DNA from: a virus
Reading direction: 5' to 3' (one strand)
Virus record (IMG/VR): IMGVR_UViG_3300014627_000002
Span: 13,618-77,617 of that record
DNA: 64,000 bases
Position 1 is the first letter of the stretch. Each line of letters opens with the position of its first letter. Under the pieces are notes generated by a model. The model ran no database searches. It worked only from the letters and a program-made list of their open reading frames with translations, and was not told the origin of the DNA. The position numbers were made by a program, and so were the translations under genes. Below are positions 1 to 44,250 of this stretch, one piece after another.

Positions 1-2
1 TG

Positions 3-3082: not shown

Positions 3083-3120
3083 CAAATGAACAAATGAACA
3101 ATAGAACAAATGAACATTTA
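3083..3120 (+). promoter_or_regulatory. 8-bp-phased GAAC-box array, site A
   Basis: CAAATGAACAAATGAACAATAGAACAAATGAACATTTA contains four AACAnnnG units in 8-bp register. It lies between divergent starts at 3044 (-) and 3204 (+). Confidence 0.6.
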
Positions 3121-3130
3121 TAAAAAAGTT

Positions 3131-3171
3131 TAGGAATATGGAAAAAACTGGAAATTTCTACTTCATAAAAT
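3131..3171 (+). promoter_or_regulatory. late-type promoter candidate (AGGAATA family)
   Basis: TAGGAATATGGAAAAAACTGG, then TAAAAT at motif positions 36-41. It lies 33 nt upstream of the 2117-aa gene. Confidence 0.55.
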
Positions 3172-3203
3172 GGGGGTGGTTCAACCATAAAACAGAGTAG
3201 GCT

Positions 3204-6200
3204 ATGCCATTCAACAATACTGCCCGTGCGGGTTTGCAAGTTTTTTCAGATGCTTTATCAGCACTGAAAAACAAAGTTTCCCCATCTCATGCACCAACTG
3301 GTGTATATGAATTTCAAGATGAGAAAATTACGCCAACCAAGCGCCAGAAGGCAAACAATGCGGCCGTAAGTCTGTTACGGCAATTACAGAATGAATCGGG
3401 GTTAAAGGCGACAGCTGAACAGAAGGTCACTTTATCGCGGTACACCGGTAAAGGGGGAAATTTAGAAGTAGAAGGGGTAAAGGGGAGCCAATATGAATAC
3501 TACACACCGGTCCCTTTAGCTAATGCACTGTGGGACCTCTTAAAAGAACATGGCTTTGACGGCGGCGCCGTACTCGATCCTTGCGCGGGGACTGGTATTT
3601 TTGCAGCTGGCCGACCTGAATCAGTGGTGATGCAGTCCGTAGAGCTTAATGATGTTTCTGGCGGTATTAATGCGTTGGTAAATGACCAGGCAAATCACAA
3701 TGTCATTGTAAGCCCTTTTGAGAAAATCGCTTCTCAGACGCAAGACAATGTTTATGATGCTGTTATTACTAATGTGCCGTTCGGTTCACGTGGAGATCGG
3801 GGCGATAATGCCCGCCATGATATTTATTCAGATGATGATTTAGACTCATACTTTGTTAAACGGTCAATTGACAAATTAAAGCACGGTAAACTGGCCGTAT
3901 TTATTGCTCACCCAAAATTACTTACGGGTGCCGGTCATAAGAAGTTCCGTCAATATATTTCTCTACGTGCTGAACTGGTGGGAGCATACCGCCTGCCTAA
4001 CAAGGTATTCCAAGCTACAGGCGCAGATGTAGTAACTGATGTTCTGGTATTTCGCAAACATACTGAAGAACTGACACAGAAAATTGAAAACCTATATGAC
4101 AATGGTTCACTTCAAGTACTTCAAGATTCCCGCATTCTGGATGCCGATATAATTGACGGTCGATATTACAAGGCTGAAGGTCAAAAAAACGTACTTGGCC
4201 AAAGTACGATAGTCAAACATGCAAAATTTAAAACAGATGTAGAAGCTGTTTTAAGTGATGAAAGCCTGCCGAATATCTTAAAACTGATTCGCCGTTTTCC
4301 AGACAGCCGTATTAATTATGGGATGCTGGAATTAACAGAAATGAAGCCAGTTTTACCGATACAAGAAGGTGATATTCGTGTCATCGGCGGCACTACATTT
4401 GAATATCAGGATGGTAAATGGATTAGCACAGGCCAGACAGCCACTTATAGTAATGCTGAAAGCTTTAGTAAGGCCCTCACAGCTTTTATGTCAGGCATGA
4501 CTTATGTTGATCTGATGGCTTATCAGAGTCATTGTGTGGCATCACATTACAAGTTATCTGCATGGGCTGGCCAGTTAATTGATGTAGTACAAAGCACAGG
4601 TGTAGAAACTTATGCACACTGGCTGGTCCAGTTTGCACTGTATGAAGCTTTACAGGCCGAAGCCTATAACAGCTATGCTCAGAACTATCCTAAGCTTACA
4701 AGTGCTTTAAAGGGCATCGCGGGGCAAGTTGGTAAAAAACCATATAAACATGCTTCAGTTAAGACCCTGGTAACGTTTAACAGTAAGGCTTTCGATAAAA
4801 ATTCAGCTGATGGCCTGTCAGCCTATTGGTATGGCAGCACTATTGAAATTGCACAGGCACTAGATGCCAAAGGCGCTTATGAAAATGCAATTTATATGGG
4901 TCGTGCTAAAGACTTTATGGTATCCGTTGATGAAATCCGGCAGACCGATCCTAATTTTGACCCATTGGCTAATGAAGATTATGCAATTTCAGGGGACGGT
5001 CAGTATGTCACGTTAAATCGGGACTATTACACGGGCAATCACGGCGAATTTTTACAGCAGATTGATGCACAGATTGAAGCCGCAACAGATCCTAAAATAC
5101 GTGCAAAACTGGTCCAGCAACGTAAAAAATCATTTGAGCATGTTGATTATGTCGATGTGGCCAATATTAATTTAGGTTTACGTGCTACCAACATTGATAT
5201 ACAGGTCAAAAGTGATTTTCTAAGCCTGTATGGTGGGGATGCAGTGACAGTCGATGAAGACGGTCGCATTCGCTTAAAAGACAAGCAAGAGCCATTAGAT
5301 CGCATTATCCGCATTATGAAGCGGGACGGGGTGCAAGGTGCTCAACATCGTTGGGTTCAAACGTTCTTCTTAAACCGTATCTTGGATTCAGTTAATAACA
5401 ATGTCCGCCTAACATTGAAGGCGAATAAGGATGAAGTATCTAAGCAGGATCATGACCTGGTATTTAAGGCTTTTTTAGAATATGCAAATGAGCTAGATGC
5501 AACCTTTAGTGCTTATCTAAAAGCCAATATCGGGTTTATGGAAGACCTAGATGCAAAAGTAAATGACCCAATGCATAAAGAAATGCAGAGTGAGCTAGAT
5601 ACTTCACCAGTAGAGGTCAAAGGCTTTGCACCTAAGTTTGCAACATTTAAAGCGATGCAGACTTATCAAAATGCAGAAGTACGCCGTTTAAGTCGCCGTT
5701 TTGAAGGAATTACCGGCTTTGATGTAGGTTTGGGTAAGACACTCACTTCAATTGCAGCTGCACAAAACCTGCATAATATTGGCGTTAAAAAGCGTACCTT
5801 GTTTGTGGTTCCATCACATACGATTTCTAAATGGTATCGTGATATGCAAATGTCGTTAGATGATTACAGTGATGTATTAGTCATCGGCTTAAAGGGCAAT
5901 ACACTAAGTTCGGTCAATAGTAGCCATTACGGTGCTGACTTAAACCTATTGCTTAGTGAACCCTATCGCAAGATCCTGATTACTAGTGATGCTTTCACTA
6001 TGATTCCGCTACGTGACCGCACCATTGAAAAATATTATGAAAGTAAAAAGGCAAAAATCGATTTTTCAAAAGATAAAGACCGAGAAAAATGGAACGCATT
6101 TATTGGCAAGAAAAAAGAACCACTTCAAAAAGATGTAGGCCGCCTACCATTTTTTGAGGACCTGAATATTGATAGCATCATTTTTGATGAAGCGCAGATG

Positions 6201-9200
6201 TTTAAAAATGGCGATGCCAGTGAAGGTTTTGGAAATTTCCAGTCTATTAAGGGCCTTTCATTATTAGCAGAAGCACAGTTATCGGACCGGGCAATTTCGG
6301 CCAAAATCAAGTCTGAATATGTTCGGGGTACTAACCCGCTTAAAGATGGTGTTGTATTGCTAAGTGCTACACCTGTAACCAATAGCCCGTCAGAAATTCT
6401 AACCATGCTGTCACTGGCCATAGGTGAGAAGAAAGCTAAAAATATGCTCGGTGGGGCTGCCATTGATTCTGTAGATGACTTTTTAAGTACTTTTGCTCAT
6501 ACCGAGTCAATTAGTGGGGTGGACCTGCTGGGTGCCGAACGTGCAGATGAAACCTTTACCGGATTTAAGAATGTCGAATTGCTTAAAAACGTTTTGCATA
6601 GTGTTGGAAACATTCAGACAGCGCGGGAAAATGATTTAAAAATTCCGGCTCAAGAAGATGTTAAAACAAATGTCAGTTTAGGTAGTGAAGACCGCCAGAC
6701 GCTTGCTGATCTGAAACGTGCATACAACATTGCCCGTCAAATGGGTAAAGGTGGGCCAGTCCTGGCAGATGAAGACGATATTAAGTTTTTGCATGAAATG
6801 ATGGGGAAACTTGGCGAATCTGAAACTTTGATCGGGCATCCATTTAACCTGATTACCAAAATGCAAGATTTGATCTTGATGGGAAGTGAGTCAGTACTTT
6901 CCCGAGCGATGTATGTCAATTACCTGCCTGAAGATCAAGAAAAGGCTCAAAAGGTTATTGATGACTTTAACAAAAAGCCAGTGAAGGTAACGTCTACTCG
7001 ATCCTTTCCATTGGTTGATAAAGCAGATGTAAAAATCAAAAAACGGGGAAAAACCATAGGTGATGCAGATGAACTTGAGATTACCGTTCGTGCTTTCCTT
7101 GATGAAGAAAATAACCGCATTGGCTTGACTGCAAACGATACAAAGGCAATTGCAGGACTAATGACCCTGGCAGATAAGGCTAAATTAGCCCTTAAACCTA
7201 AGCTGTCATCTAAAATGCAGGCACTTATTGATAATGTAAAAACAGAAATGGCTACGCCTAAACATAATGGTCACGCCAAGCAAATTATTTTCTGTGACAC
7301 ATTGGCCATGCATCACATTATCAAGCAGGCTTTGATTGAATACTGCGGAGTAGAAAAGTCCCGTATTGCAATTTTAAATGCTGCAATCAAGCCAGATGGC
7401 AGTAACGGCGCTGTTAAAAGTGAAGATGTTCAGGATATTCAGGACGGCTTTGCTACTGATAAATACACCATTGTCATTGCTAATAAGAAAGCTGATACCG
7501 GTATTGATCTGCAAAAAGGCACCCAGGCTATTCACCATTTAACAACCGGCTGGACACCTGATAGCTTGCAACAGCGTAATGGCCGTGGTGTACGTCAAGG
7601 TAATGAGCAAGAGCGCGTTAATGTGTATATGTATTCAGCAAATGGCTCATTTGATGAATATAAATTGCATGTGATTAATGGTAAATCAGACTGGATTAAT
7701 CAGTTAATGAATAAGGGAGCTACCGTATCTGGCACGCTGCAGGTATCTAGTGAGCTTACAGATGATGATTATGACCTGATGATTCAGGCAGACAGTGCCG
7801 AAGCCATTGAAGGGCTTTTAAAACAGCGTCAGGAACGCGAGAATCAAGCACGTCATGACCGGGCAGTTAAACATACTGATCTGTTAATCAAAATTGCAAA
7901 AAAAGCAGCGTCACAGGCAGACCGTACAGAGTCTAGTGTTGCTCAGGAAATCATTATTAAGGATTACGAAAAGTACATCACTTTAATGCGCCGTGATGCT
8001 AAGGCAGAGGACGCGGCTGAACGTAACCAGATCCTAGAGCAAAAGCAGGCCATTGTAAGTCAGTATGATAGTTATCTGAAAAATAACAGTGTTGAAAATT
8101 GGGATAGGGGTTTAAAGCGCAAGGCAGAGGAAAAAGGCCAGGCATCACTTTGGTTGTCTTCATTACATCATTCTGGTTTTGAAGTCGCTGCAACAGAGTT
8201 CAGTAAATTAGATGAGCAAGTTTTAAATTCTGATACCTCACTTTCAAGCCGTGCAAAAGCTAGTTTTCAGTCATTAAAACGTATGGCAGACAGTACACGT
8301 GAACAGCTTTTAAAATATGCAGACAGTCCATTTACTGATGAAGAACGGGCCATGTTACTTGATGGTACCGCCGTTCTTGATGAGAACCAGCAAATCTTAA
8401 AGCATGGTGATCTTTTAAAGGCAGAAGGAAGTAACGGCGCTATATACGGTATGCGTGTTATTGCTGAATCTCAAGACTACTATACTTTCACTGAAAGCTT
8501 TGTCCGTAATAGACAACCAATTGAACCGCATGAGCGTGATGCAGCAATTCAAAGCTTTATTGCTTATGAAACACAGTTGCTAAAAAAGAATGAGGTGTTC
8601 AGTTACGGTAGTTTAAATAGCGAAACATTAAACTCAAATAAACGCTTTAGCCGGGTTTATCCAGAGATCCAGACAGCAGTTGAAGAACAGTTGAAGGCAG
8701 AGCATGATAACTGGATTCACCAGAGTAGCGTATACAACAGTCCAGGACTCCAATTGAAGTCCAACCATGCTCTACACTGGCCAGAAATTACCTTTCCTCA
8801 ATTCTTTAAAAATAACTTGCAGCTGGCGACTGTTTTTAATGCGCCATTTTCAGGAATCATTGAAAGTATTGAACTCGGTGATGCAATTGCTCGAGTCAAA
8901 ATTCCTAACACTAAAGCGGACTTGGTGCAGCGTAAATATCCGATGAATCTAACTCGCTTGGCTGAGCAAATTTTTTCAGTAGCTGAAACAGAAAAAATTG
9001 CGGTAGATTTACAACATGCTGAATCTATTATCAATAATGAATTTATGTATTACTTTGCAGAGAAAGTAGATAAAGCTTTATCTGCATACTATAAGGGAAG
9101 TTTAAAGCTGCTTTATCCGCATCATACAGTCTTGACTGATGACCAAAAGGTAGAGATTGCAGAATATATTTTAGAACATGCTTTAAATGGCTTAGTAAGT

Positions 9201-9557
9201 TCTTATACACATCTAATGGAATGGGTACAGGAAAAGTCTGCATTTAAAGGAATTCTAAAGCTATATGCATTAGATGATAATGACCCCGAAGTTATTGTAA
9301 AACAGCATGTAAAACTACACGGCGGCATGGGTAAATTTAAGAATATTAAAATTACTGGTGTAGCTTTCTTGGGTACCGGCAGTTTTGGAGCAGCTTTCAA
9401 GTCAACCTATAAAGATGATATGAAGGCGTATGCTGACTCGATCCGTAAGCGTTGTGCTTGGGACAACCGCAATACCCGTTGGGTAGTTGAACCTGAAGTC
9501 ATGGTATGGATGATGAAACAGGACTGGTTTAATATGAATGAAGTAGAATTTTACTAA
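3204..9557 (+). CDS. giant N6-adenine methyltransferase / SNF2-family helicase fusion (P1 DarB-like anti-restriction protein)
   Basis: 2117-aa ORF. The N-terminus has gamma-class MTase motifs (LDPCAGTGIF, then ITNVPFG). Helicase motifs are GFDVGLGKT (~nt 5727), IIFDEAQ (~nt 6184) and QQRNGRGVRQG (~nt 7569). The architecture matches P1 DarB. Confidence 0.85.
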   Translation: MPFNNTARAGLQVFSDALSALKNKVSPSHAPTGVYEFQDEKITPTKRQKANNAAVSLLRQLQNESGLKATAEQKVTLSRYTGKGGNLEVEGVKGSQYEYYTPVPLANALWDLLKEHGFDGGAVLDPCAGTGIFAAGRPESVVMQSVELNDVSGGINALVNDQANHNVIVSPFEKIASQTQDNVYDAVITNVPFGSRGDRGDNARHDIYSDDDLDSYFVKRSIDKLKHGKLAVFIAHPKLLTGAGHKKFRQYISLRAELVGAYRLPNKVFQATGADVVTDVLVFRKHTEELTQKIENLYDNGSLQVLQDSRILDADIIDGRYYKAEGQKNVLGQSTIVKHAKFKTDVEAVLSDESLPNILKLIRRFPDSRINYGMLELTEMKPVLPIQEGDIRVIGGTTFEYQDGKWISTGQTATYSNAESFSKALTAFMSGMTYVDLMAYQSHCVASHYKLSAWAGQLIDVVQSTGVETYAHWLVQFALYEALQAEAYNSYAQNYPKLTSALKGIAGQVGKKPYKHASVKTLVTFNSKAFDKNSADGLSAYWYGSTIEIAQALDAKGAYENAIYMGRAKDFMVSVDEIRQTDPNFDPLANEDYAISGDGQYVTLNRDYYTGNHGEFLQQIDAQIEAATDPKIRAKLVQQRKKSFEHVDYVDVANINLGLRATNIDIQVKSDFLSLYGGDAVTVDEDGRIRLKDKQEPLDRIIRIMKRDGVQGAQHRWVQTFFLNRILDSVNNNVRLTLKANKDEVSKQDHDLVFKAFLEYANELDATFSAYLKANIGFMEDLDAKVNDPMHKEMQSELDTSPVEVKGFAPKFATFKAMQTYQNAEVRRLSRRFEGITGFDVGLGKTLTSIAAAQNLHNIGVKKRTLFVVPSHTISKWYRDMQMSLDDYSDVLVIGLKGNTLSSVNSSHYGADLNLLLSEPYRKILITSDAFTMIPLRDRTIEKYYESKKAKIDFSKDKDREKWNAFIGKKKEPLQKDVGRLPFFEDLNIDSIIFDEAQMFKNGDASEGFGNFQSIKGLSLLAEAQLSDRAISAKIKSEYVRGTNPLKDGVVLLSATPVTNSPSEILTMLSLAIGEKKAKNMLGGAAIDSVDDFLSTFAHTESISGVDLLGAERADETFTGFKNVELLKNVLHSVGNIQTARENDLKIPAQEDVKTNVSLGSEDRQTLADLKRAYNIARQMGKGGPVLADEDDIKFLHEMMGKLGESETLIGHPFNLITKMQDLILMGSESVLSRAMYVNYLPEDQEKAQKVIDDFNKKPVKVTSTRSFPLVDKADVKIKKRGKTIGDADELEITVRAFLDEENNRIGLTANDTKAIAGLMTLADKAKLALKPKLSSKMQALIDNVKTEMATPKHNGHAKQIIFCDTLAMHHIIKQALIEYCGVEKSRIAILNAAIKPDGSNGAVKSEDVQDIQDGFATDKYTIVIANKKADTGIDLQKGTQAIHHLTTGWTPDSLQQRNGRGVRQGNEQERVNVYMYSANGSFDEYKLHVINGKSDWINQLMNKGATVSGTLQVSSELTDDDYDLMIQADSAEAIEGLLKQRQERENQARHDRAVKHTDLLIKIAKKAASQADRTESSVAQEIIIKDYEKYITLMRRDAKAEDAAERNQILEQKQAIVSQYDSYLKNNSVENWDRGLKRKAEEKGQASLWLSSLHHSGFEVAATEFSKLDEQVLNSDTSLSSRAKASFQSLKRMADSTREQLLKYADSPFTDEERAMLLDGTAVLDENQQILKHGDLLKAEGSNGAIYGMRVIAESQDYYTFTESFVRNRQPIEPHERDAAIQSFIAYETQLLKKNEVFSYGSLNSETLNSNKRFSRVYPEIQTAVEEQLKAEHDNWIHQSSVYNSPGLQLKSNHALHWPEITFPQFFKNNLQLATVFNAPFSGIIESIELGDAIARVKIPNTKADLVQRKYPMNLTRLAEQIFSVAETEKIAVDLQHAESIINNEFMYYFAEKVDKALSAYYKGSLKLLYPHHTVLTDDQKVEIAEYILEHALNGLVSSYTHLMEWVQEKSAFKGILKLYALDDNDPEVIVKQHVKLHGGMGKFKNIKITGVAFLGTGSFGAAFKSTYKDDMKAYADSIRKRCAWDNRNTRWVVEPEVMVWMMKQDWFNMNEVEFY

Positions 9558-10025: not shown

Positions 10026-10050
10026 AGCCCGTATAACACGGGTCTTCTTT
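10026..10050 (+). terminator. rho-independent terminator
   Basis: GCCCGT-ATAACA-CGGGT hairpin followed by CTTCTTTT. Confidence 0.55.
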
Positions 10051-10053: not shown

Positions 10054-10078
10054 GTTTAAATGAACAAATGAACAAATA
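10054..10078 (+). promoter_or_regulatory. 8-bp-phased GAAC-box array, site B
   Basis: GTTTAAATGAACAAATGAACAAATA, immediately after the terminator. Confidence 0.55.
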
Positions 10079-10195
10079 CTCATTCTAAAGACTGATGGTT
10101 AGATTCTAACAATGTATATTAAATCATCAAGGCAGGGATTACGGCCCTAGACCTTTTATAAGCACTATCTAAGCGCTAGCAGAAAAAGGAAAGGT

Positions 10196-10236
10196 CAGGA
10201 ATAGTAAATTTCTGGCTTTTTTTAATATGTTTAAAT
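10196..10236 (+). promoter_or_regulatory. late-type promoter candidate (weaker AGGAATA family member)
   Basis: CAGGAATAGTAAATTTCTGG, then TTAAAT at positions 36-41. It overlaps array site C. Confidence 0.35.
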
Positions 10237-10268
10237 GTTCAATTGAACAAATGAAGGAATAAACAAAT
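10228..10268 (+). promoter_or_regulatory. 8-bp-phased GAAC-box array, site C
   Basis: TGTTTAAATGTTCAATTGAACAAATGAAGGAATAAACAAAT contains the perfect palindrome TGTTCAATTGAACA (10236-10249) and ends 1 nt before the ATG at 10270. Confidence 0.55.
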
Positions 10269-10269: not shown

Positions 10270-10554
10270 ATGCGTGAAGCGAAAGATCATCCTAATTTTA
10301 GTGAGATCCTTCAGTATGGCCATACTGTTGAAGCCGACATTGCAATGTTTATGAATGGCGAATTTTGGCAGTATTACAAGCGGGGGGACTTTAGCACTAA
10401 AAACTATTGGTATTGTCTACCAGTACGCAACGGGCAGGCTCTTGGCTGGCGAAATGGCTATGTTGCATGTATGAACCAGCTAAAAGATTTTTATATAAAT
10501 ATGGGTAAAAAAGTTGAGCTTATAGAAATCAGGAATAAGGAAAAAACCTCATAA
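10270..10554 (+). CDS. hypothetical protein
   Basis: 94-aa ORF with AAGGAA upstream, followed by a strong hairpin terminator. Confidence 0.55.
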   Translation: MREAKDHPNFSEILQYGHTVEADIAMFMNGEFWQYYKRGDFSTKNYWYCLPVRNGQALGWRNGYVACMNQLKDFYINMGKKVELIEIRNKEKTS

Positions 10555-12098: not shown

Positions 12099-12303
12099 TA
12101 TTGATTCTGATATTCCATTAAATGAAGTTTTGAAGATGCCTTTTTGGTTTTTAGATTCATTTTATAAAGATGGAGCTTGGAATATCAAAAAAGTGCATAA
12201 AGAAAATCATGATCAAATCGTGGGTAATGTTTTTCAGTACCTTCAAAATATACAAGGACTACTGAAAAGCGTTTCTATTTCGTTTTCAAGGAAACCGCGA
12301 TGA
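11992..12303 (+). CDS. hypothetical protein or frameshift extension of 11382..12098
   Basis: The +1 frame opens at nt 11983, just before a GGGGG run (11994-11998). There is no convincing SD. Its stop overlaps the next start (ATGA). Confidence 0.4.
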   Translation: MGVQMTLLFDFALIPPSQDTQESFYQLLLKRAQNLSIDSDIPLNEVLKMPFWFLDSFYKDGAWNIKKVHKENHDQIVGNVFQYLQNIQGLLKSVSISFSRKPR

Positions 12304-13078: not shown

Positions 13079-13967
13079 TAAGTCACTTAAAGAAATCCAA
13101 AAACTTTTAGGTTCGATAGGATTATATACGGGAGCAATTGATGGTTTTTGGGGATGGGGTAGCTATAATGCGATTTTAACCCTTTCAGCCCTGTGTAAAC
13201 CTAATTCTAAGTCTTCTAAAATCAAGTCCAGTGATATTAAAAATATTTCTAAAGAGATACAAAAAATATTGGTAGAACATCATCAATATTTTGGTGTTAT
13301 TGATGGAATATTCGGAAAAAACTCAATTGCCGGTTTAAATAATCTTATTCCAGCGCCTAAAGTTACTGAGGAAAGTTTAAAGAAAATCTATAAAAACTGC
13401 TCACCAGGCTTTGCTGATTTTATTAATTCTTTTGCTGCACAGTATCAGTTGAACACTAAAGCGGATCTATGTGCTTTTCTGGCCAATAATATTCATGAGT
13501 CATCTGGCTTTACCAGCTTGCGTGAAAATATGAATTATCGCCCTGCCCGCTTATTAGAAGTTTTCCCGAAGTATTTTAAAACACTGGCAGAAGCGACAGA
13601 CGTAGTAAAACGTGGGCCTATAGCTATTGCTGACGTGGTATACGGTGGCCGCATGGGTAACGGACGTAACAATGGAGATGGATATAAGTACCGTGGTGGC
13701 GGCTGTAATCATTTAACCGGTTTAGATAACTATACCCTTTGCAGTATTGGTATAGGACTAGGTAATCAGCTTGTTGATAATCCGGATCTTATTACCCAGC
13801 CTGAATATGCGGTTAAATCAGCTTACTGGTTCTGGAATAAAAACCGCTGTAGCCGGGTAGCTAATCAAGGTAATTTTGAAGCAGCTTGCAGAATTGTAAA
13901 TGGTGGAACTAACGGTCTGTCTGAACGTCATGCCCTACATATTAAAGCCTGGTCTGTCCTGTTTTAA
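13065..13967 (+). CDS. endolysin: two peptidoglycan-binding repeats plus a GH19 (chitinase-like) catalytic domain
   Basis: The repeats are LKEIQKLLGSIGLYTGAIDGFWG and SKEIQKILVEHHQYFGVIDGIFG. GH19-like blocks are NIHESSGF and YKYRGGGCNHLTGLDNY. The start is placed at ATG 13065 behind SD TAAGGAA. Confidence 0.85.
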   Translation: MTDINKSLKEIQKLLGSIGLYTGAIDGFWGWGSYNAILTLSALCKPNSKSSKIKSSDIKNISKEIQKILVEHHQYFGVIDGIFGKNSIAGLNNLIPAPKVTEESLKKIYKNCSPGFADFINSFAAQYQLNTKADLCAFLANNIHESSGFTSLRENMNYRPARLLEVFPKYFKTLAEATDVVKRGPIAIADVVYGGRMGNGRNNGDGYKYRGGGCNHLTGLDNYTLCSIGIGLGNQLVDNPDLITQPEYAVKSAYWFWNKNRCSRVANQGNFEAACRIVNGGTNGLSERHALHIKAWSVLF

Positions 13968-15510: not shown

Positions 15511-15606
15511 AAAAGATAGTTTTTCCGAGTTATAAAGATAGTTTTTCCGATGTGGATAACTCATTAAAAGATAGTTTTTCCGAGCAGCAGGATAGTTTGT
15601 AGATTG
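15511..15606 (+). repeat. iterons upstream of rep (3 good copies plus 1 degenerate copy)
   Basis: AAAAGATAGTTTTTCCGAG occurs at 15511 and 15566. TAAAGATAGTTTTTCCGAT occurs at 15533. A degenerate copy CAGGATAGTTTGTAGATTG occurs at 15588. An inverted partial copy follows at 15607. Confidence 0.9.
15551..15559 (-). promoter_or_regulatory. DnaA box
   Basis: TGTGGATAA is the complement of the consensus TTATCCACA. It lies between iterons 2 and 3. Confidence 0.6.
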
Positions 15607-15662: not shown

Positions 15663-16586
15663 ATGAAAATGCAGAGTCGGCTTGTAGTTAAAGATAATGC
15701 ACTGATAGATGCAAGCTTTAACTTAACCCTTATTGAACAGCGTTTAATGCTATTGGCTATTGTTGAAGCCAGGGAACTATCAACACTCACCCCATCTATA
15801 CCCGTAGAAGTCACTGTAAAGAGCTATATTGAACAATATAAAGTAAAAGAGAGCACTGCATACGAAACATTGTTTGATGCGTGTAAAACGCTAAGACGGC
15901 GTGAATTTAGCTATATAGACCGTTATAAGAATAGTGATGCTGTTTCTACTGCAGGTTGGGTGAATAAAGTCACTTATGTAAAGTCTAAGGGCATAGTGGT
16001 TTTATATCTAAGTGAAGAAGTGATCAGCATGATCAGCCGGTTAGAAGAACAATTTACTCGTTACCATTTAGAGCAGGTTTCAGATTTTAATAGTAAATAT
16101 AGCATTCGACTCTATGAAGTGGTTATCAAGTGGTTAGCAGCTGGTAAAACTGGAAAGATTGCTATCAATGATCTACGTGCACGGCTGGGACTGCAAGATA
16201 CTGAATATAAAACCATGAGCCTGTTTAAAACTAATGTGCTTGATAAGGCAGTTGATGAAATTAACGCTAAAACAGACGTGCGGGTAAAGTATGATCAGTA
16301 TAGATCAGGCCGAACAATTAGCCATTTTTCCTTTACGTTGAAAGAGAAACGTGTAATTAAAACAGTTAAGGATGCTAAACAGTATCAGTTTGAATTATCA
16401 GCAAAACAGGTTGATTTTTTTGCAAATAAACTTGCTTCTGACCCTAATTTCGGTAGCCAGTATGCAAAAGTTGGGGAAAGCGTTGAAGACTTTGAGATCC
16501 GAGTAAAAGGACAGTTAGCTCAAAAGACCTATTGTGCTAAGTATTCTGAGCATTTAATTCGTTTAGGTTATATCGAAAAAACTTAA
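15663..16586 (+). CDS. rep: Rep_3-family plasmid replication initiator
   Basis: The N-terminus LVVKDNALIDASFNLTLIEQRLMLLAI.. is typical of Rep_3 initiators. Its own iterons flank the gene on both sides. Confidence 0.9.
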   Translation: MKMQSRLVVKDNALIDASFNLTLIEQRLMLLAIVEARELSTLTPSIPVEVTVKSYIEQYKVKESTAYETLFDACKTLRRREFSYIDRYKNSDAVSTAGWVNKVTYVKSKGIVVLYLSEEVISMISRLEEQFTRYHLEQVSDFNSKYSIRLYEVVIKWLAAGKTGKIAINDLRARLGLQDTEYKTMSLFKTNVLDKAVDEINAKTDVRVKYDQYRSGRTISHFSFTLKEKRVIKTVKDAKQYQFELSAKQVDFFANKLASDPNFGSQYAKVGESVEDFEIRVKGQLAQKTYCAKYSEHLIRLGYIEKT

Positions 16587-16633: not shown

Positions 16634-16700
16634 AAAAGATAGTTTTTCCGAGTAAATAAAAGATAGTTTTTCCGAGTGAATAAAAGATAGTTTTTCCGAG
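16634..16700 (+). repeat. iterons downstream of rep (3 perfect copies, 24-bp period)
   Basis: AAAAGATAGTTTTTCCGAG occurs at 16634, 16658 and 16682. Confidence 0.9.
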
Positions 16701-16716
16701 TGGATTTAAAGCCGTT

Positions 16717-17410: not shown

Positions 17411-17692
17411 TTACTGTCCCTTATATTTCTCTAATCCATCTTTCAAGAACTGGTTAAGCGCTTCTCTACGAGTCTTAAATTTACGTGAATTAACTACGAA
17501 CAGGTCCAGTTCCTGTTTTGTATCTGCATCACAGTCCCAATTCACACGGACCGTTTCTGCACTAGCTGCGGCCTTTTTACTTGGCGCTGTAGTGTCTTCA
17601 GCAGGGCTATCGTTTTGTGCAAACTCTTTAGCTTCTGCAAAACGGTTTTTAGCACCTGGTTTAGCAATTGCCTGGCGTGGTTTTGTCGTCAT
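17411..17692 (-). CDS. ParG-like ribbon-helix-helix partition/centromere-binding protein
   Basis: 93 aa, directly downstream of parA. It has a disordered basic N-terminus and a C-terminal RHH-like pattern (VRVNWDCDADTKQELDLFVV..TRREALNQFLKDGL). Confidence 0.6.
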   Translation of the reverse strand: MTTKPRQAIAKPGAKNRFAEAKEFAQNDSPAEDTTAPSKKAAASAETVRVNWDCDADTKQELDLFVVNSRKFKTRREALNQFLKDGLEKYKGQ

Positions 17693-17697: not shown

Positions 17698-18342
17698 CTA
17701 CCCTTGTTTAAGTGCCTTTAAAACTTCTTTACCAAAGTCTTGAAACTGTTGTTTAGCTTTCTGGTGATTATGAATCAGTGCATGTTTTCCAAGTCCAATG
17801 ACTTCTTCATAAGCTACATAATTTGAGATCGGGACCGGTATTTCTGGATAACCAAAAGTTTCTAATGCTGCTTCACGTATCTCGTTAGATTTAGACGTGT
17901 TTTTAAACCTATTCCAGACAATACGCAAATTAACTTTTTTGTCTTTAGCTTCTAGTGCCTTAGTAATAAGTTCAGCCATATCACTTACTGCCCACAGATC
18001 AGGGGAAGTGGCTGCCATAGGAAGTAATACCAGGTCGCTGATATAAAGGATCGCGTTCATGATTTCAGCCATACGCGGCGGTGAATCAATTACTACATAG
18101 TCATACTTGCCTTCAGCAGCTTCAAGAACCTGCATAAGTTCATCAAGATTACGAGCTGTTTCACAGGTCAGTTTTGGATGCTCAAACATACTGCACCAGG
18201 CAGACAATGTACCTTGCGGTAAGTCGGCATCAACTGCCAGAACTGTCTTTTTCTTTTCAAGAAGGAACCCGCATAGATTCGCTGATAAAGTGGACTTACC
18301 GGCCCCACCCTTTAATTGTAAGAATGAAATATATTGTGTCAT
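17698..18342 (-). CDS. parA: ParA-type partition ATPase (small, type Ib-like)
   Basis: Deviant Walker A LKGGAGKST. The start is placed at ATG 18342 behind AGGGA. The listed longer ORF needs a TTG at 18381 inside the GAAC-box array. Confidence 0.85.
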   Translation of the reverse strand: MTQYISFLQLKGGAGKSTLSANLCGFLLEKKKTVLAVDADLPQGTLSAWCSMFEHPKLTCETARNLDELMQVLEAAEGKYDYVVIDSPPRMAEIMNAILYISDLVLLPMAATSPDLWAVSDMAELITKALEAKDKKVNLRIVWNRFKNTSKSNEIREAALETFGYPEIPVPISNYVAYEEVIGLGKHALIHNHQKAKQQFQDFGKEVLKALKQG

Positions 18343-18357: not shown

Positions 18358-18407
18358 TTGTTTAAATGAAAAAATGTTCAAATGAACTAAAATTCATTTG
18401 AACATTT
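18358..18407 (+). promoter_or_regulatory. 8-bp-phased GAAC-box array, site D (parA promoter / candidate centromere)
   Basis: TTGTTTAAATGAAAAAATGTTCAAATGAACTAAAATTCATTTGAACATTT has direct and inverted GAAC/GTTC boxes in 8-bp register. It starts 16 nt upstream of the parA ATG. Confidence 0.6.
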
Positions 18408-18441
18408 TAGGTGAAAAAAAACGAAATTACAAATTAGGAAA

Positions 18442-19727: not shown

Positions 19728-19759
19728 AACAACCGCCTATATTTTGTCTTGTAACAACA

Positions 19760-19777
19760 TTATGCGCAAACGCATAA
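19760..19777. promoter_or_regulatory. GCATAA/TTATGC palindrome (operator candidate for the leftward erf-par operon)
   Basis: TTATGCG-CAAA-CGCATAA has perfect 7-bp arms. Extra half-sites TATGCAATAGCGCATAAAAT follow. Confidence 0.55.
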
Positions 19778-19837
19778 AAATATGCAATAGCGCATAAAAT
19801 ATTTTATATAAGCTGGTTTATAAGAATAATTCGCATT

Positions 19838-19869
19838 AAAAAAGGACGGTTAAAAAACCGTCCTTTTTT
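19838..19869. terminator. bidirectional rho-independent terminator
   Basis: AAAAAAGGACGGT-TAAAAA-ACCGTCCTTTTTT, downstream of the leftward repressor gene. Confidence 0.8.
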
Positions 19870-19892
19870 GTAAATTTATGTACTTTGCTTTA

Positions 19893-20678: not shown

Positions 20679-20743
20679 TCTTATTTAAACCTCAAAAACC
20701 CATACGCAAAAGATTAAAAGCCATGTCATTTCAGGCTTTCTTT

Positions 20744-20856
20744 CATAATTATGCAATAAAAAAATGAAAGTTCAATTAAGCCAAGAACTACGTCAAGCAT
20801 CAAAGTGCTTGCTAAAATATTCGCTTGCGCATAATATTTATGCTAATGAGCATAAT
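20744..20856. promoter_or_regulatory. cI/cro intergenic switch region with palindromic operators
   Basis: It contains CATAATTATG (20744-20753), CAAGCA-TCAAAG-TGCTTG (20794-20811), GCATAA-TAT-TTATGC (20829-20843) and GCATAAT (20850-20856). Confidence 0.6.
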
Positions 20857-20870
20857 TTAATGATAAGTTA

Positions 20871-26548: not shown

Positions 26549-26590
26549 ATGTTTAAATGAACAAAAGAACATTTAAACAAATAAACAAAC
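26549..26590 (+). promoter_or_regulatory. 8-bp-phased GAAC-box array, site E
   Basis: ATGTTTAAATGAACAAAAGAACATTTAAACAAATAAACAAAC. Confidence 0.55.
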
Positions 26591-26604
26591 TTAATGAGAT
26601 AAGT

Positions 26605-26832
26605 ATGAATCAAGTAGCCGTTTTTTTTCATCATCAATCAAATTTGAATAACGCCCTTCAGGAAAACAATGGCGATGCATATCGCAAGATTATGATGCAG
26701 GCTGAAAAGCCAGTAATTGAACATACTTTGGTTATTTGTCGTGGCAACCAGACCAAAGCTGCTGAAATGCTGGGCTTAAACCGTGGCACGCTTCGTAAAA
26801 AAATGAAAGAACACGGCTTTATGAAGGCTTGA
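26605..26832 (+). CDS. Fis-family DNA-binding protein
   Basis: The C-terminus GNQTKAAEMLGLNRGTLRKKMKEHGF is nearly the Fis HTH consensus. The start is placed at the in-frame ATG 26605 because the listed ATG 26557 lies inside the repeat array and has no SD. Confidence 0.75.
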   Translation: MNQVAVFFHHQSNLNNALQENNGDAYRKIMMQAEKPVIEHTLVICRGNQTKAAEMLGLNRGTLRKKMKEHGFMKA

Positions 26833-29264: not shown

Positions 29265-29321
29265 CTTCATGCATGAAGCTGCATTCATGGGCGCTGCCTA
29301 GAAAAAACCCTTAACGACATA

Positions 29322-29380
29322 TTGTTCATTTAAATAATCTATGTTTAAATGAACAAATGTTCAAATGAACAAATAAACAT
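29322..29380 (+). promoter_or_regulatory. 8-bp-phased GAAC-box array, site F (longest)
   Basis: TTGTTCATTTAAATAATCTATGTTTAAATGAACAAATGTTCAAATGAACAAATAAACAT ends 14 nt before the ATG at 29395. Confidence 0.6.
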
Positions 29381-34758: not shown

Positions 34759-35427
34759 ATGAATATGCAGACTGAAGACAAAGAAGCTTTTTTTGATGAA
34801 AAAAGACTGATCACAGTCGTTGGCATCAATTGTTTACGTGCACGGGAAATTGCTGGCTTAACCCGTAAAGAAGCCCAGGCACGTATTTTTAGATATAAAA
34901 ACCCGGATATGTTTGCTAACCGGATATGCGAGATCGAAACCGGCAACAAGAAAATTGATCTTAAAATTCTATATCGCATGTGCGTTGAGTACTCATGCAG
35001 TGCTGACTATCTGTTGGGCCTAAGCAATGACTTTGAGCGTAACCTGGCATCGTCTTATTCAGGTATGGTTTTTAATTCGGTCCGTGGTAGCGTTTTGGAA
35101 ATGACTGAGCGTGTTTGTACGCAAATGTCAGAGATCGTGCGCTTTCTGCCGCCGTTTCAGGGGGAATTATTAAAAAACAGTGCCAAGAATACAGTAGATA
35201 CTATAGATCAGCATTTGCATGATCTGGCGTTTAAGGGCTCTTATCCGGATATTGTTGATGCTTATAATGATTTAAAGGCGAAGGTTCAGATGTTTGATAC
35301 CTTCTTTGCTAAGCAGATGCGGATTATGGAGTTAAATATGCTGGACCAGTTAAATCATAAGGATGATGAACTTTCTAGCCGTACTATGACCGACTATACT
35401 GCATTGCCTGTACCTGAGAAGTGTTAA
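34759..35427 (+). CDS. XRE-family helix-turn-helix regulator
   Basis: LRAREIAGLTRKEAQARIF...ICEIETGNKKIDLKILYRMCVEYSCSADYLLGLSND is a typical XRE HTH with the LLGLS tail. Confidence 0.65.
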   Translation: MNMQTEDKEAFFDEKRLITVVGINCLRAREIAGLTRKEAQARIFRYKNPDMFANRICEIETGNKKIDLKILYRMCVEYSCSADYLLGLSNDFERNLASSYSGMVFNSVRGSVLEMTERVCTQMSEIVRFLPPFQGELLKNSAKNTVDTIDQHLHDLAFKGSYPDIVDAYNDLKAKVQMFDTFFAKQMRIMELNMLDQLNHKDDELSSRTMTDYTALPVPEKC

Positions 35428-38836: not shown

Positions 38837-38852
38837 TAAAAGGTATATTAGT

Positions 38853-39482: not shown

Positions 39483-39533
39483 TGATTCATCCCAAAGATC
39501 AATTTACGCAAGATTGGGTAGAGGAAATAACCG

Positions 39534-40019: not shown

Positions 40020-40039
40020 GGCCGTACAGGGGTTATAAG

Positions 40040-41077: not shown

Positions 41078-41183
41078 TATTTATGATGCATGTATTTTGG
41101 CTATTGTCTTGGTGCTTATTATAGCGTTTGGCATGGGCTTTCTTGCTTGCTGGATTATGTTTGCTTACGGGCTTATGTGAGGG
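41070..41183 (+). CDS. unlisted 37-aa hydrophobic peptide
   Basis: MDSIYDACILAIVLVLIIAFGMGFLACWIMFAYGLM. SD is GGGGTGAG. It overlaps the upstream stop and ends just before the next start. Confidence 0.4.
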
Positions 41184-41188
41184 TGAGC

Positions 41189-41725
41189 ATGAATAAAGAT
41201 GCATTCATAGCTAAAGTTCTAGCAGTTACTCCAGACCACTTAATTCTTAATGTTATGAAAGGGTATGCAGAGCAAATTGTAGATGATAGCAATTATTGGA
41301 ATTTGCTAGGCACAGCTTGGAAAGTAAGTGGTTCGTTTGAACATCAAGACCAGTGGATTGAACTGTTTCAAAGTAAACGGCGTAACCGTCAAAAAATCAT
41401 GAAAACCAGCGAACGTAGAGAGTTCTCAAGACTTCCTAATATTGTAACGGCCTATCGTGCCTACACACATGCAGATGAGTTAAAGCATTCAATCTGCTGG
41501 TCACTGGATCTGGCATTCGTAAAGCAATATGCCGAAAAAACAGGGCGTAAAGTTGCGGTAATGCAATTCAATAAGGCGAATATTTTTGCATATTTTAATC
41601 GCCGTAAAGAGTCTGAAATTCTGGTATGGCGTGGTATCGATGACTCATTTCCAGGTACACGTCAGAAAGCAGAAGAACATATAAACAATGGTGCCAGATT
41701 GACTAAGCATCAAATAACCTTGTGA
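41189..41725 (+). CDS. hypothetical protein
   Basis: ATG 41189 sits behind GAGGGTGAG. The listed ORF begins further upstream in hydrophobic-looking sequence that belongs to the other frame. Confidence 0.6.
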   Translation: MNKDAFIAKVLAVTPDHLILNVMKGYAEQIVDDSNYWNLLGTAWKVSGSFEHQDQWIELFQSKRRNRQKIMKTSERREFSRLPNIVTAYRAYTHADELKHSICWSLDLAFVKQYAEKTGRKVAVMQFNKANIFAYFNRRKESEILVWRGIDDSFPGTRQKAEEHINNGARLTKHQITL

Positions 41726-41743
41726 AAAATAGGAAAAGTAGTA

Positions 41744-42271: not shown

Positions 42272-42419
42272 ATATATGGCCTTATGGTTCATAGTTGTAG
42301 GTACTCTGGCCGCTTTCAGTATCCAAACAGATAAGTCAGGTTATTTCAACTCTTTACTGGTGACATTAACCGCCATATGTTTTGGCTTTGCTACTTATAT
42401 TGGGAGCATCCAGGGATGA
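42264..42419 (+). CDS. unlisted 51-aa two-helix membrane peptide
   Basis: MAEYMALWFIVVGTLAAFSIQTDKSGYFNSLLVTLTAICFGFATYIGSIQG. SD is AAGGAA. It overlaps the upstream stop. Confidence 0.4.
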   Translation: MAEYMALWFIVVGTLAAFSIQTDKSGYFNSLLVTLTAICFGFATYIGSIQG

Positions 42420-42619
42420 GTATGTCTGAGTGGACAGTAATTAAAGTAGTCTGTGTGAAGTGTGGCCACTATTTAACGGGATGCTATTGTGATCATTTTG
42501 GTAAGGATTGTATGCACTTAAATGTTGGTGAGTATGGGAGTAATGGACTGGCTGAGTGCTTTAATTGCAAGAAATGGATAAATAAAGATAGAGAGGCTGT
42601 GAAAGATTTCGATGATTGA
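42416..42619 (+). CDS. small zinc-ribbon protein
   Basis: MSMSEW..CVKCGH..CFNC. ATG 42416 forms an ATGA overlap with the preceding small ORF. The listed start is 42377. Confidence 0.5.
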   Translation: MSMSEWTVIKVVCVKCGHYLTGCYCDHFGKDCMHLNVGEYGSNGLAECFNCKKWINKDREAVKDFDD

Positions 42620-42866
42620 ACTCCTTATTCAATTAGCTTTGATTCTGTTTCTAGTAATTGCTTATATTCTAGTTGGGCTATATTTCAATTACCTTAGAAA
42701 AGATAAAGTTTTAAGCGCATTTACATGGATTATCTTCATGGGGGTAATTGGAGGTTATACCCAAACTTTTTCAATTACGGCGCTCACTGATTGGAATGAT
42801 TTGTGGTGCATCTTTGCATTTAGTTATTTATTTATTTATGAAGCACCTGATTGGGTAAAGTCGTGA
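42612..42866 (+). CDS. small membrane protein
   Basis: 84 aa with three hydrophobic helices. Confidence 0.55.
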   Translation: MIELLIQLALILFLVIAYILVGLYFNYLRKDKVLSAFTWIIFMGVIGGYTQTFSITALTDWNDLWCIFAFSYLFIYEAPDWVKS

Positions 42867-43105
42867 TGCCAAGTAAAGTAAGAACCTTAAATCAAGAAGA
42901 TTGGAAACGTACACAGCTAAGAATGCCACAAGAGCAATATCAGACAGTGGCTGGTTACGCTGAGAAAAACAATCTTTCCCTTAATTCAGCAATCTTAGAG
43001 CTGCTGGAAAAAGCTGTAGATTTAGACAGTGATGTGAGTGTAAGCGACTCATCTATTACAAAAATAGCCGATAAGGTTATCGAGCGTATAAGGGGCCATA
43101 ACTAA
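42866..43105 (+). CDS. Arc/MetJ-type ribbon-helix-helix DNA-binding protein
   Basis: RTQLRMPQEQYQTVAGYAEKNNLSLNSAILELLEKAV is an Arc-like pattern. ATG 42866 overlaps the upstream stop (TGATG). Confidence 0.65.
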   Translation: MPSKVRTLNQEDWKRTQLRMPQEQYQTVAGYAEKNNLSLNSAILELLEKAVDLDSDVSVSDSSITKIADKVIERIRGHN

Positions 43106-43128
43106 AATCTGTAAAGAAAGATTGAAAT

Positions 43129-43157
43129 AGGGCCAGTAGAAATACTGGCCCTTTAAT
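43129..43157 (+). terminator. rho-independent terminator
   Basis: AGGGCCAGTA-GAAA-TACTGGCCCT followed by TT. Confidence 0.65.
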
Positions 43158-43159
43158 TT

Positions 43160-43200
43160 TAGGAATAGAAAAAAAACTGATTTTTCAGCTTCACCAAAAT
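43160..43200 (+). promoter_or_regulatory. late-type promoter candidate (AGGAATA family)
   Basis: TAGGAATAGAAAAAAAACTGA, then CAAAAT at positions 36-41. Confidence 0.55.
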
Positions 43201-43244
43201 AAGCCTTTTAGAAGTCAAAGACGCAAAACTAAAAGGGCTATTTT

Positions 43245-43955
43245 ATGACTGGTATATTGATTGTGATTGGATTCTTCTTTGCTTTATTTATTGGGAGCCG
43301 GTTAGGTAAACGTAGCGTTGCGCACGATTGCCAAGATTACGGCGGTTTTACTTATGGCGATTATTTTTATGAGTGTATAGTCCGTCCGATTGACGAGCCA
43401 GAATACGGCCTACCAGACGCTATAGCTGAACACTCAAAAGCAGATATAAACCCATTTGCAGAAAACACACTGGATAAAGTGAAATTCTTAAAACAGAGTA
43501 CTAAAGATAGTCTGGCCAAAGGTGAATCATCCGGTTTGGCCATATTTCCTGATGGTATGTTTACTGATCAAAAAGAAGAACATGATTGTTTACACTGTCA
43601 GAGTGATGCTAATGAGCTATCACGCCGTATGATTCTATGTAAGGACTGTGGCAATAAACGCTGTCCAAAGGCTCAGAATCATCGTTTTAATTGCACTGGT
43701 AGCAATGTTACGGGCCAGATCGGTAATGTGGATTCTACGGCGGACCAGAAGCGCTTAGACGGCTCTAGTATTGTTCATCAAACTGTACTTCACGATATTG
43801 GTGCAAGTTCATACCAGGCGAATACATTTAAATCCGATTCAACTTATAAAGATGAACCACGTTGTTCAGGTCCATCTGTTGATTCAGGTTCAAACAGTTC
43901 TAGTGATTCATATAGTTCGTGTGACTCAAGCAGTTCCAGCAGTTATAGCGATTAA
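43245..43955 (+). CDS. membrane-anchored Cys-rich protein with a poly-Ser C-terminus
   Basis: N-terminal TM is GILIVIGFFFALFIG. Several CxxC pairs are present. The C-terminus is SGSNSSSDSYSSCDSSSSSSYSD. Confidence 0.55.
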   Translation: MTGILIVIGFFFALFIGSRLGKRSVAHDCQDYGGFTYGDYFYECIVRPIDEPEYGLPDAIAEHSKADINPFAENTLDKVKFLKQSTKDSLAKGESSGLAIFPDGMFTDQKEEHDCLHCQSDANELSRRMILCKDCGNKRCPKAQNHRFNCTGSNVTGQIGNVDSTADQKRLDGSSIVHQTVLHDIGASSYQANTFKSDSTYKDEPRCSGPSVDSGSNSSSDSYSSCDSSSSSSYSD

Positions 43956-43981
43956 TCTTACTATTTAATGAATGGACCCTT

Positions 43982-44164
43982 ATGGCTAATACATCAATCA
44001 TGCGGCCTACTGATGCAAGTCACTTCTTTACAGCATTAAGTGGCCAGACTCGCTACTTCAAAATAGAAGACGGTAAGCTGATGTGCTGGTATGAAGAACT
44101 TCAAGAATGGAAATATCCAATAGCAGCAAACTACCTGATGAAAAACATACAGTTAATCAAGTAG
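43982..44164 (+). CDS. hypothetical protein
   Basis: 60-aa ORF followed by a terminator. Confidence 0.45.
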   Translation: MANTSIMRPTDASHFFTALSGQTRYFKIEDGKLMCWYEELQEWKYPIAANYLMKNIQLIK

Positions 44165-44187
44165 TCAGTTAAAATCCAGATCAATAT

Positions 44188-44211
44188 GACCCGCCGTGTG
44201 CGGGTTTTATT
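44188..44211 (+). terminator. rho-independent terminator
   Basis: ACCCGC-CGTGT-GCGGGT followed by TTTATTT. Confidence 0.7.
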
Positions 44212-44213
44212 TC

Positions 44214-44250
44214 ATGTTTAAATGAACAAATAAACAAATGAACAATAAAA
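44214..44250 (+). promoter_or_regulatory. 8-bp-phased GAAC-box array, site G
   Basis: ATGTTTAAATGAACAAATAAACAAATGAACAATAAAA. Confidence 0.55.

Follow-up and report, generated by a model that had tools for sequence, protein, structure and literature searches.

The arrays of phased GAAC boxes scattered along the DNA analysed here, 64,000 nucleotides (nt) of virus record IMGVR_UViG_3300014627_000002 (positions 13,618 to 77,617, called the window throughout), are probably sites for one small protein: a predicted ribbon-helix-helix (RHH) protein of 93 amino acids (aa) that is encoded just downstream of a ParF-like parA gene and that would coat the arrays, autoregulate its own operon and control others. 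The window is a distant P1-like Acinetobacter-type phage-plasmid, and the replicon from which it comes has about 76-78 kb and 40.5% G+C. We arrived at this reading by comparing the window with three complete plasmids whose ParA proteins are 46-51% identical to its own, A. soli pGFJ2, A. defluvii p1_010030 and p1_010055 of Acinetobacter sp. WCHA55 (W55), and with additional relatives, given L numbers, that were drawn from metagenomes and genomes.

The arrays stand far above chance. Seven sites, S1 to S7 (Table 1), are present where a first-pass annotation of this DNA had placed them, and they consist of 4-bp boxes (GAAC, GTTC or a one-mismatch version) that recur every 8 bp, with A/T spacers of 4 bp in between. 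At a distance of 8 bp the window has 14 exact GAAC/GTTC pairs, compared with 2.2 +/- 1.4 in 200 dinucleotide shuffles, and three triples compared with none; at the other periods from 5 to 13 we counted just 1-6 such pairs and zero triples. When the 64 kb were scanned loosely for arrays of at least four units, six of the seven sites were recovered and no others (Markov expectation 0.03); S2 was missed because it has three units. The annotation had proposed a matrix scan against shuffled controls. A 14-mer matrix trained on W55, the A. soli plasmid and L011 only gave 16 matches of at least 12.5 bits in the window, compared with 2.3 +/- 1.7 in shuffles, and 15 of the 16 lay inside the seven sites. 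The sole coding match is a lone 14-mer at 41330, and all seven sites fall within the 8.8% or so of the window that is intergenic on a crude gene map, which bears out the earlier observation that no array lies inside a long open reading frame (ORF). Upstream of the window, another 8.6 kb of the replicon contained no further array.

Table 1. Coordinates of the seven arrays and of the par genes in the window.
Feature	Position	Strand	Description	Setting
S1	3083..3120	+	4 exact GAAC boxes (3088, 3096, 3104, 3112); spacers AAAT or ATAG; TGTTTAAATG leader absent	between divergent 104-aa ORF (2730-3044, -) and DarB-like gene (3204-9557); GGAATATGGAAAAA element 13 nt downstream of S1
S2	10054..10078	+	3 boxes GTTT/GAAC/GAAC	begins right behind terminator-like hairpin 10027-10043; followed by about 110 nt without ORF of at least 20 aa, then second terminator-like hairpin 10187-10223
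S3	10228..10268	+	leader and 5 boxes GTTT/GTTC/GAAC/GAAG/AAAC from 10229	begins right behind hairpin 10187-10223; ends 1 nt before ATG of 94-aa gene (10270-10554)
S4	18358..18407	.	6 boxes GTTT/GAAA/GTTC/GAAC/ATTC/GAAC from 18360	
S5	26549..26590	+	leader and 5 boxes GTTT/GAAC/GAAC/AAAC/AAAC from 26551	upstream of small Fis-type helix-turn-helix gene (ORF 26557-26832, probable start near 26605) and its operon
S6	29322..29380	+	inverted unit 29323-29336, then leader and 5 boxes GTTT/GAAC/GTTC/GAAC/AAAC from 29343	15 nt upstream of ATG 29395, first of a run of small genes
S7	44214..44250	+	leader and 4 boxes GTTT/GAAC/AAAC/GAAC from 44216	right behind terminator-like hairpin 44188-44206; gene 44380-45072 downstream
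parA	17698..18342	-	214-aa Walker-type partition ATPase, small ParF-like kind; Pfam AAA_31, CbiA, VirC1	
93-aa candidate centromere-binding/regulator protein	17411..17692	-		gene begins 5 bp past parA stop
predicted parA promoter	18404..18432	-	-35 TTGTAA (18432-18427), 17-bp spacer, -10 TAAAAT (18409-18404); consensus match only	

The anatomy of the sites is that of RHH/ParG sites, with 4-bp boxes and 4-bp A/T spacers, direct and inverted units, and three to six units to an array. A leader had been ascribed to six of the seven sites; the exact form TGTTTAAATG is in fact present at five and S2 carries the variant GGTTTAAATG, while S1 has none. The uniform orientation that had also been claimed applies to most units and breaks down in S4 and S6, both of which contain inverted ones. 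The inverted unit of S6 stands 19 bp from the main array and is hence out of register with it, and S4 is two-faced because its spacers change halfway, from AAAT at the first four boxes to ATTT at the last two, which are inverted. What recurs in the relatives is an imperfect palindrome of 14 bp, TGTT[C/T]AAATGAACA. A lag-8 self-similarity scan suits the window and is too strict for relatives with units of 16-17 bp. The exact leader pattern had no match in IMG/VR, and an Rfam scan of the whole window returned no family.

Each of the seven arrays is situated at the 5' end of a transcription unit, none being found between convergent genes; the six other than S4 precede units on the plus strand. 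Terminator-like hairpins end no more than a few bases ahead of S2, S3 and S7. The arrays of W55, the A. soli plasmid and the A. defluvii plasmid are likewise found at operon 5' ends. A sigma-70-like TTAACG-16-AATAAT (29311-29338) ends just before the main array of S6, and another, TTGATA-16-TATTAT (44256-44283), lies directly downstream of S7. The interval between S2 and S3 (10079-10227), whose ORF-free stretch of about 110 nt was judged on the plus strand, might hold a small RNA, although its folding z-score is only -1.8 and it has no Rfam match.

S4 is the array next to the partition genes. It had been placed in the parA promoter, and it takes up the whole gap from the predicted parA -10 element to the ribosome-binding site, within the 60 bp that separate erf from parA; read on the minus strand, the elements follow one another as TTGTAA, 17 bp, TAAAAT, six boxes, ribosome-binding site and ATG. 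Translation of parA starts at the ATG at 18342 and not at the TTG at 18381. In W55 and L018 the layout at parA is alike, with TTGAAC-17-TATGAT followed by the arrays. S4 is the sole repeat that adjoins the par genes, and there is no space for another because the gene for the 93-aa protein follows so closely upon parA. We predict S4 to be the par operator and regard it as the candidate primary centromere. As in type Ib systems, it has six boxes at an 8-bp period in mixed orientation, lies upstream of the operon and overlaps the promoter. ParA itself is of the type Ib kind, being small and having no DNA-binding domain at its N-terminus. Among solved structures it is closest to TP228 ParF (4dzz; E = 8e-11, residues 4-209 aligned).

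The 93-aa protein has a conserved N-terminal segment (K11-P12, R17-F18, A21, F24-A25), a disordered linker at residues 29-42 (predicted local distance difference test score, pLDDT, below 50) and a C-terminal RHH-like domain made up of the ribbon ETVRVNWD and helices at 56-68 and 75-89. Fourteen homologues share the N-terminal motif (K-P, R-F, A, F-A) and the conserved C-terminal half, on either side of a variable linker. In an AlphaFold2 model the C-terminal domain consists of an extended segment and two helices (pLDDT 84-90), and its top structural matches are the RHH domains of HicB3 (root-mean-square deviation 1.1 A over 41 residues) and ParD (template modelling score, TM, 0.71). Partition-protein versions of 160 aa with a tandem RHH domain are encoded by L013 (1532-2014; protein P0004) and L045 (6651-7130), and both go with TGAT-type arrays. 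The model of P0004 runs strand-helix-helix twice, with both strands called as sheet, and it matches three chains of the F relaxosome, E, F and G, each about 105-120 residues long (probability 1.00, E = 7e-4, TM 0.64-0.72). We take these chains, whose names the search did not give, to be the three TraY molecules of that complex, TraY being a single-chain RHH dimer. P0004 is thus predicted to fold like F TraY, as an RHH pseudo-dimer within one chain, and the matches of the two models together lead us to predict an RHH-type C-terminal fold for the 93-aa protein. Its ribbon is close to that of ParG, KRVNVNFD (PMC3413123), despite the lack of homology at the sequence level.

The family comparison carries most of the argument that this protein reads the arrays. 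For each of 11 related replicons or contigs, the dispersed repeat of that replicon is also the one that precedes parA. The A. soli plasmid and W55 have the core TGTT[C/T]AAATGAACA at about 8-10 sites each, the site upstream of parA included, and the A. defluvii plasmid has zero copies of the GAAC-type core and about 11 arrays of TGAT/ATCA type with an 8-bp period, again including one upstream of parA. The dispersed sites of a replicon all change motif together, and this concerted change suggests that one trans-acting factor per replicon serves all of its arrays. The box type covaries with the ribbon of the 93-aa protein (Table 2): GAAC is found with T/L-R-N in five lineages, TGAT with T-R-V, K-Q-V or K-P-A in four, and other boxes with E-R-S in two. 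Such covariation is what would be expected if the 93-aa protein reads the boxes.

Table 2. Ribbons of the partition proteins and the boxes found upstream of parA.
Replicon or contig	Ribbon	Positions 2/4/6	Box upstream of parA
window	ETVRVNWD	T-R-N	GAAC
L023	PTVRENFD	T-R-N	GAAC
W55/L018	ETRRENFD	T-R-N	GAAC
L011	PTKRENFD	T-R-N	GAAC
A. soli plasmid	DLVRENWD	L-R-N	GAAC
A. defluvii plasmid	DTYREVFD	T-R-V	TGAT
L007/8	ETYREVFD	T-R-V	TGAT
L013	DKYQEVFD	K-Q-V	TGAT
L045	KKYPEAFD	K-P-A	TGAT
L009	DESRESWE	E-R-S	GATC plus GAAC boxes sharing one register
L015/L019	KEIRQSYD	E-R-S	AAATG then AGC, TAT, TAA or CAT

On a neighbour-joining tree of ParA the GAAC class is paraphyletic, comprising the five lineages whose ribbons could be read and L016, whose ribbon gene is off its contig; the TGAT class forms a single clade that nests beside the GAAC-type A. 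soli plasmid. The ParA of L015 is the nearest to that of the window (68% identity), yet its box type has switched on its own. The tree therefore suggests about three independent box switches, each accompanied by a change of ribbon. A single 10-unit array upstream of parA in L009 (2120-2205) passes from GATC to GAAC boxes in one 8-bp register, and it may be an intermediate or a dual-specificity site.

The arrays also keep syntenic positions among the related elements even where the motif differs. An array lies upstream of darB in the window (S1), in W55 (60643) and, in TGAT form, in the A. defluvii plasmid (67996). One follows the Ulx-like gene in the window (S2), W55 (53267/53284), the A. defluvii plasmid (60995) and L007 (13429), and one precedes the PmgG-like cluster in the window (S3), W55 (50814/50831) and the A. 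soli plasmid (71892). The A. soli plasmid, the A. defluvii plasmid, L007 and L013 have an array upstream of erf, and every replicon examined has one upstream of parA.

We infer binding, cooperativity and repression by the 93-aa protein, and the mechanism that we propose is as follows. Each (T)GAAC or GTTC box would be read by one RHH dimer; neighbouring dimers, set 8 bp apart, would contact each other, bind cooperatively whatever the orientation of the boxes and coat arrays of three to six boxes. At S4 the coat would lie over the parA transcription start region and bring about autoregulation or repression, while the same site would serve in partition, the ParF-like ATPase acting on the S4 complex through the conserved N-terminal motif of the 93-aa protein. 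Coats on the other six arrays would modulate transcription, most likely by repression or as a roadblock, and their targets would be the DarB-like anti-restriction operon, a short non-coding unit, the 94-aa gene ahead of the head/lysis cluster, the Fis-type operon, a block of small genes and the block that starts at 44380. The level of the whole regulon would be set by the autoregulated amount of partition protein, and a short burst of its expression could follow entry of the DNA into a cell without the 93-aa protein. By analogy with omega of pSM19035, arrays of at least four boxes could double as centromeres; the proposal that such dispersed arrays recruit ParA in this capacity is speculative.

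Several observations weigh against this reading. The homology searches did not link the protein to known RHH regulators: the family profile aligned with ParG at a probability of 0.3% in hhalign, where the ParG sequence had been entered by hand; a Pfam search with 13 homologues gave chance matches only, with no ParG or RHH match at E values up to 5; and a profile search of the PDB returned only the RHH domain of HicB3 at E = 0.7, which is no significant homology. The single-domain fold matches themselves have E values of about 5, because the domain is so small. Positions 2, 4 and 6 were assigned as DNA-facing by aligning the ribbons to ParG and Arc, the covariation has a base of 11 lineages and about three switches, and the E-R-S ribbons of L009 and L015 pair with rather different sets of boxes. 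Scans of the six plus-strand sites found no common convincing sigma-70 promoter on which a coat might act, and the mechanism does not account for the constant TGTTT first unit or for the mostly uniform orientation. One comparison speaks for the reading: in the integrative relative vB_AbaM_ABMM1 (terminase identity 54%) tblastn detected no homologue of ParA, a tblastn search with the 93-aa protein had no match in any phage record, and phased 8-bp arrays are absent. ABMM1 also lacks the GGAATA-type second motif, so that it is a distant control of little weight.

It is unlikely, although it deserves to be weighed first among the alternatives, that some other regulator encoded by the replicon binds the arrays, with the parA promoter as one member of its regulon. 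We infer array binding by the 93-aa protein, so an unrecognised small protein could take its place, as could the 222-aa protein (34759-35427) that is conserved in four of four complete replicons and is annotated as helix-turn-helix (HTH) in W55; the gene content is P1-like, and P1 C1 acts at many scattered operators. However, boxes phased at 8 bp in either orientation suit RHH proteins rather than HTH dimers, and the 93-aa protein is the only RHH-type protein common to all the replicons that bear arrays. Its ribbon covaries with the boxes even between close ParA relatives, and a type Ib operon needs a site for its own binding protein, for which only S4 adjoins. The two Arc-like RHH proteins that had been named as possible binders are unlikely ones, since W55 carries the same arrays and yet no homologue of the 85-aa protein (48525-48782), and the 104-aa ORF beside S1 has no orthologue in the three complete relatives. 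CI and Cro were rejected as well, as the cI-cro gap and the region at 19728-19892 carry GCATAA palindromes and no arrays. These palindromes (for example GCATAATATTTATGC and GCGCATAA repeats) occupy 20679-20870, between the CI-like and cro-like genes, and 19728-19892, upstream of the operon of a 122-aa gene and erf; similar sequences are present in L019 and L023. They are likely to be CI/Cro operators of a regulon separate from the arrays.

Quite unlikely, too, is a purely segregational role, in which the 93-aa protein binds all the arrays but uses them as multiple centromeres only, after the manner of the four IR sites of N15, their intergenic placement reflecting insertions that were tolerated. 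Partition systems offer precedents, in that parH and the operator of TP228 are both centromeres and 4-6 boxes keep about half of the activity (PMC3130281), and at least four contiguous repeats suffice for ParA activation in pSM19035 (PMC9499535); six of the seven arrays have at least four units. Tolerated insertion does not explain why every array is at the 5' end of a transcription unit, with none between convergent genes and three adjoining upstream terminators, and the sites of RHH partition proteins that have been studied overlap and repress promoters.

That the arrays are promoter elements is improbable. In this case TGTTTAAAT would be an extended -10 element, an alternative already raised in the annotation, or the arrays would form a class of late or middle promoters peculiar to the phage and recognised by one of its factors. 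The sites do come after terminators and before operons, the leader is kept at six of seven, and TGAACA resembles a -35 hexamer that one scan pairs with TAAAAT at S7. Yet TGTTTAAATG holds no hexamer with A at position 2 together with T at position 6 (TTAAAT has T at 2, TAAATG has G at 6), as an extended -10 element with its TG one base upstream would require, promoter scans call nothing on the leader, and the arrays of the A. soli plasmid have no constant leader. In W55, L018 and L020 the 14-mer stands upstream of parA in three tandem copies at 17-bp spacing and antisense, which together with the hexamer content tells against the extended -10 proposal, and the change of motif between close relatives suits a private DNA-binding protein better than RNA polymerase. 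A late-promoter role is disfavoured because a distinct motif, GGAATAWNNAAAAA, keeps a fixed distance from late-gene starts and makes the better candidate. It occurs in the window at 3133, 10532, 36603, 58412 and about 63208, and also at 12179, with a copy at 737 in coding sequence; elsewhere it is found in L046 (1702, 4273 and 6610), W55 and the A. defluvii plasmid. It lies on the gene strand, 67-81 nt upstream of late-type starts (DarA-, DarB- and PmgG-like, tail and structural genes) and often just past a terminator, and is a candidate late promoter or leader element. In places an array stands 10-30 nt upstream of it, namely at S1, at 2563 and 16177 in W55 and at 67996 in the A. defluvii plasmid.

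Least probable is that the element has recruited a regulator of its Acinetobacter host. The A. defluvii plasmid has TGAT arrays that are Fur-box-like, and GAAC-N4-GTTC is like some SOS boxes, in both cases by resemblance only, but related elements within one genus carry different motifs, a replicon switches motif at all of its sites at once, and the motif tracks a ribbon that the element itself encodes.

We return to the 93-aa protein as the probable binder of the arrays and ask which known system it most resembles. The architecture is best filed as type Ib and ParF/ParG-like and the logic as an omega/KorB-like network of regulator and centromeres, in which arrays before phage operons are the new variant features; this phage-plasmid family and its arrays were not found described in the papers that we searched. 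The comparison with TP228 made in the annotation stands as far as the architecture, the ParF-like ParA, the predicted RHH domain and the ParG-type array anatomy are concerned. In both systems the gene for a small ATPase of the ParF type precedes that for a small protein whose N-terminus is flexible and whose C-terminus is an RHH domain (both features being predictions in our case); the flexible tail of type Ib proteins carries an arginine that stimulates ParA. The parH/OF region of TP228 likewise lies ahead of the operon and covers its promoter, and its 4-bp boxes are degenerate, occur in direct and inverted form and are set apart by AT-rich spacers of 4 bp. ParG places one dimer on each tetramer box, tolerates both orientations across the AT-rich spacers and finds a single box insufficient (PMC3130281, PMC3413123). 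The comparison fails at homology, since ParG has none that is detectable to the 93-aa protein; moreover, the TP228 box is ACTC and not GAAC, and TP228 has one 20-box locus, in contrast to the 6-box parA site and the six arrays up to 26 kb away before phage operons that we describe.

The occurrence of one site type at several operon 5' ends recalls the omega and KorB networks. In the delta/omega system of pSM19035 an RHH partition protein uses short repeats in either orientation at several promoters, and these operators are parS; six parS arrays overlap promoters and at least four contiguous repeats are needed (PMC9499535). That Firmicute plasmid has 7-bp heptads in arrays of 7-10 at three types of plasmid-maintenance promoter, whereas the Gammaproteobacterial phage-plasmid has 8-bp units in arrays of 3-6, mostly before phage operons. 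KorB of RK2 is similarly a single partition protein that controls many operons from a dozen dispersed operators (PMC11790492). It differs in being a large ParB of the HTH/CTPase kind, able to slide and to act from afar, and its operator is a single palindrome rather than a phased array. The phage-plasmid N15 also has several partition sites away from its par operon, its IR (inverted repeat) sites reportedly being scattered among phage genes. Four such natural centromere sites exist (PMC7205306). N15 is, however, of type Ia, with the HTH protein SopB, single 16-bp palindromes, a linear genome and autoregulation by SopA; where that type has SopA/SopB and single palindromes, we found a small ParF-like ParA, an RHH-type 93-aa protein and phased arrays. 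The P1 C1 repressor uses one type of operator scattered genome-wide before many operons. The window resembles P1 in its gene repertoire and in having one type of site scattered before operons, but the P1 operators are single asymmetric 17-bp sites for a monomeric repressor unrelated to partition, and here the separate CI/S24-type repressor has GCATAA palindromes of its own.

The kinship of the window with P1 is seen in its DarA-, DarB-, DdrA-, Ulx- and PmgG-like proteins and in a PacB-like large terminase. A P1-like anti-restriction block, found at 1-9557 of the window and at 6680-11308 of L046, is a further sign of this distant kinship; its members are a DarA-like protein of 1103 aa, cut by the start of the window, a 435-aa DdrA/InPase-like protein, a 2117-aa DarB-like methyltransferase-helicase and a Ulx-like protein. 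Other genes encode a Rep_3 initiator with flanking iterons, a serine resolvase, Erf, an S24-type CI repressor with a cro-like neighbour, O-like and DnaC-like replication proteins and several methyltransferases. The iteron CTCGGAAAAACTATCTTTTA is present in six copies, three upstream (15514-15590) and three downstream (16637-16705, at 24-bp spacing) of the Rep_3-type rep gene (15663-16586), and this region is likely to be the plasmid origin. W55 and L011 share the iteron, and L015 and L023 have a variant of it, TGTATAAAACTATCTTT. W55 (L005 and L006, 71.5 kb) also contains an octamer, CACGGCGC, about 38 times, on both strands and mostly in coding sequence. An identical sequence to that of the window is present in NCBI assembly GCA_031982845.1 (contig DALYXN010000016.1); megablast of 14 kb of the window found no match among phage records and only a 93-bp match among plasmids, and a ParA search of IMG/VR returned nothing. 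The profile of the 93-aa protein likewise had no match in species-representative genomes, and a Foldseek comparison with viral models gave nothing meaningful.

Phage-plasmids run plasmid and phage programmes from one genome, and the coupling of the two has been worked out mainly in P1 and N15. The family described here provides a testable case, in which a tiny RHH partition protein has an apparent replicon-wide regulon of phased arrays before phage operons. We hold it to be possible, although doubtful, that the 93-aa protein is a master regulator throughout the family, tying segregation to about six phage and accessory operons, the DarB-like anti-restriction operon among them, with all arrays of at least four boxes serving as centromeres and with changes of the ribbon, together with concerted rewriting of all 7-11 arrays, repeatedly making new specificity groups. 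If this is true, these groups would at once determine which co-resident elements are incompatible in partition and which interfere with each other's regulation; if the 93-aa protein binds at parA only, what is left is an ordinary type Ib operator and an unexplained repeat family. The family also offers natural switches of ribbon and box, in which ribbon position 6 goes from N to V/A or S as GAAC gives way to TGAT or other boxes. These switches may be used to work out a recognition code for RHH proteins, to study the joint change of a regulator and all its sites, and to predict incompatibility groups among the phage-plasmids of Acinetobacter.

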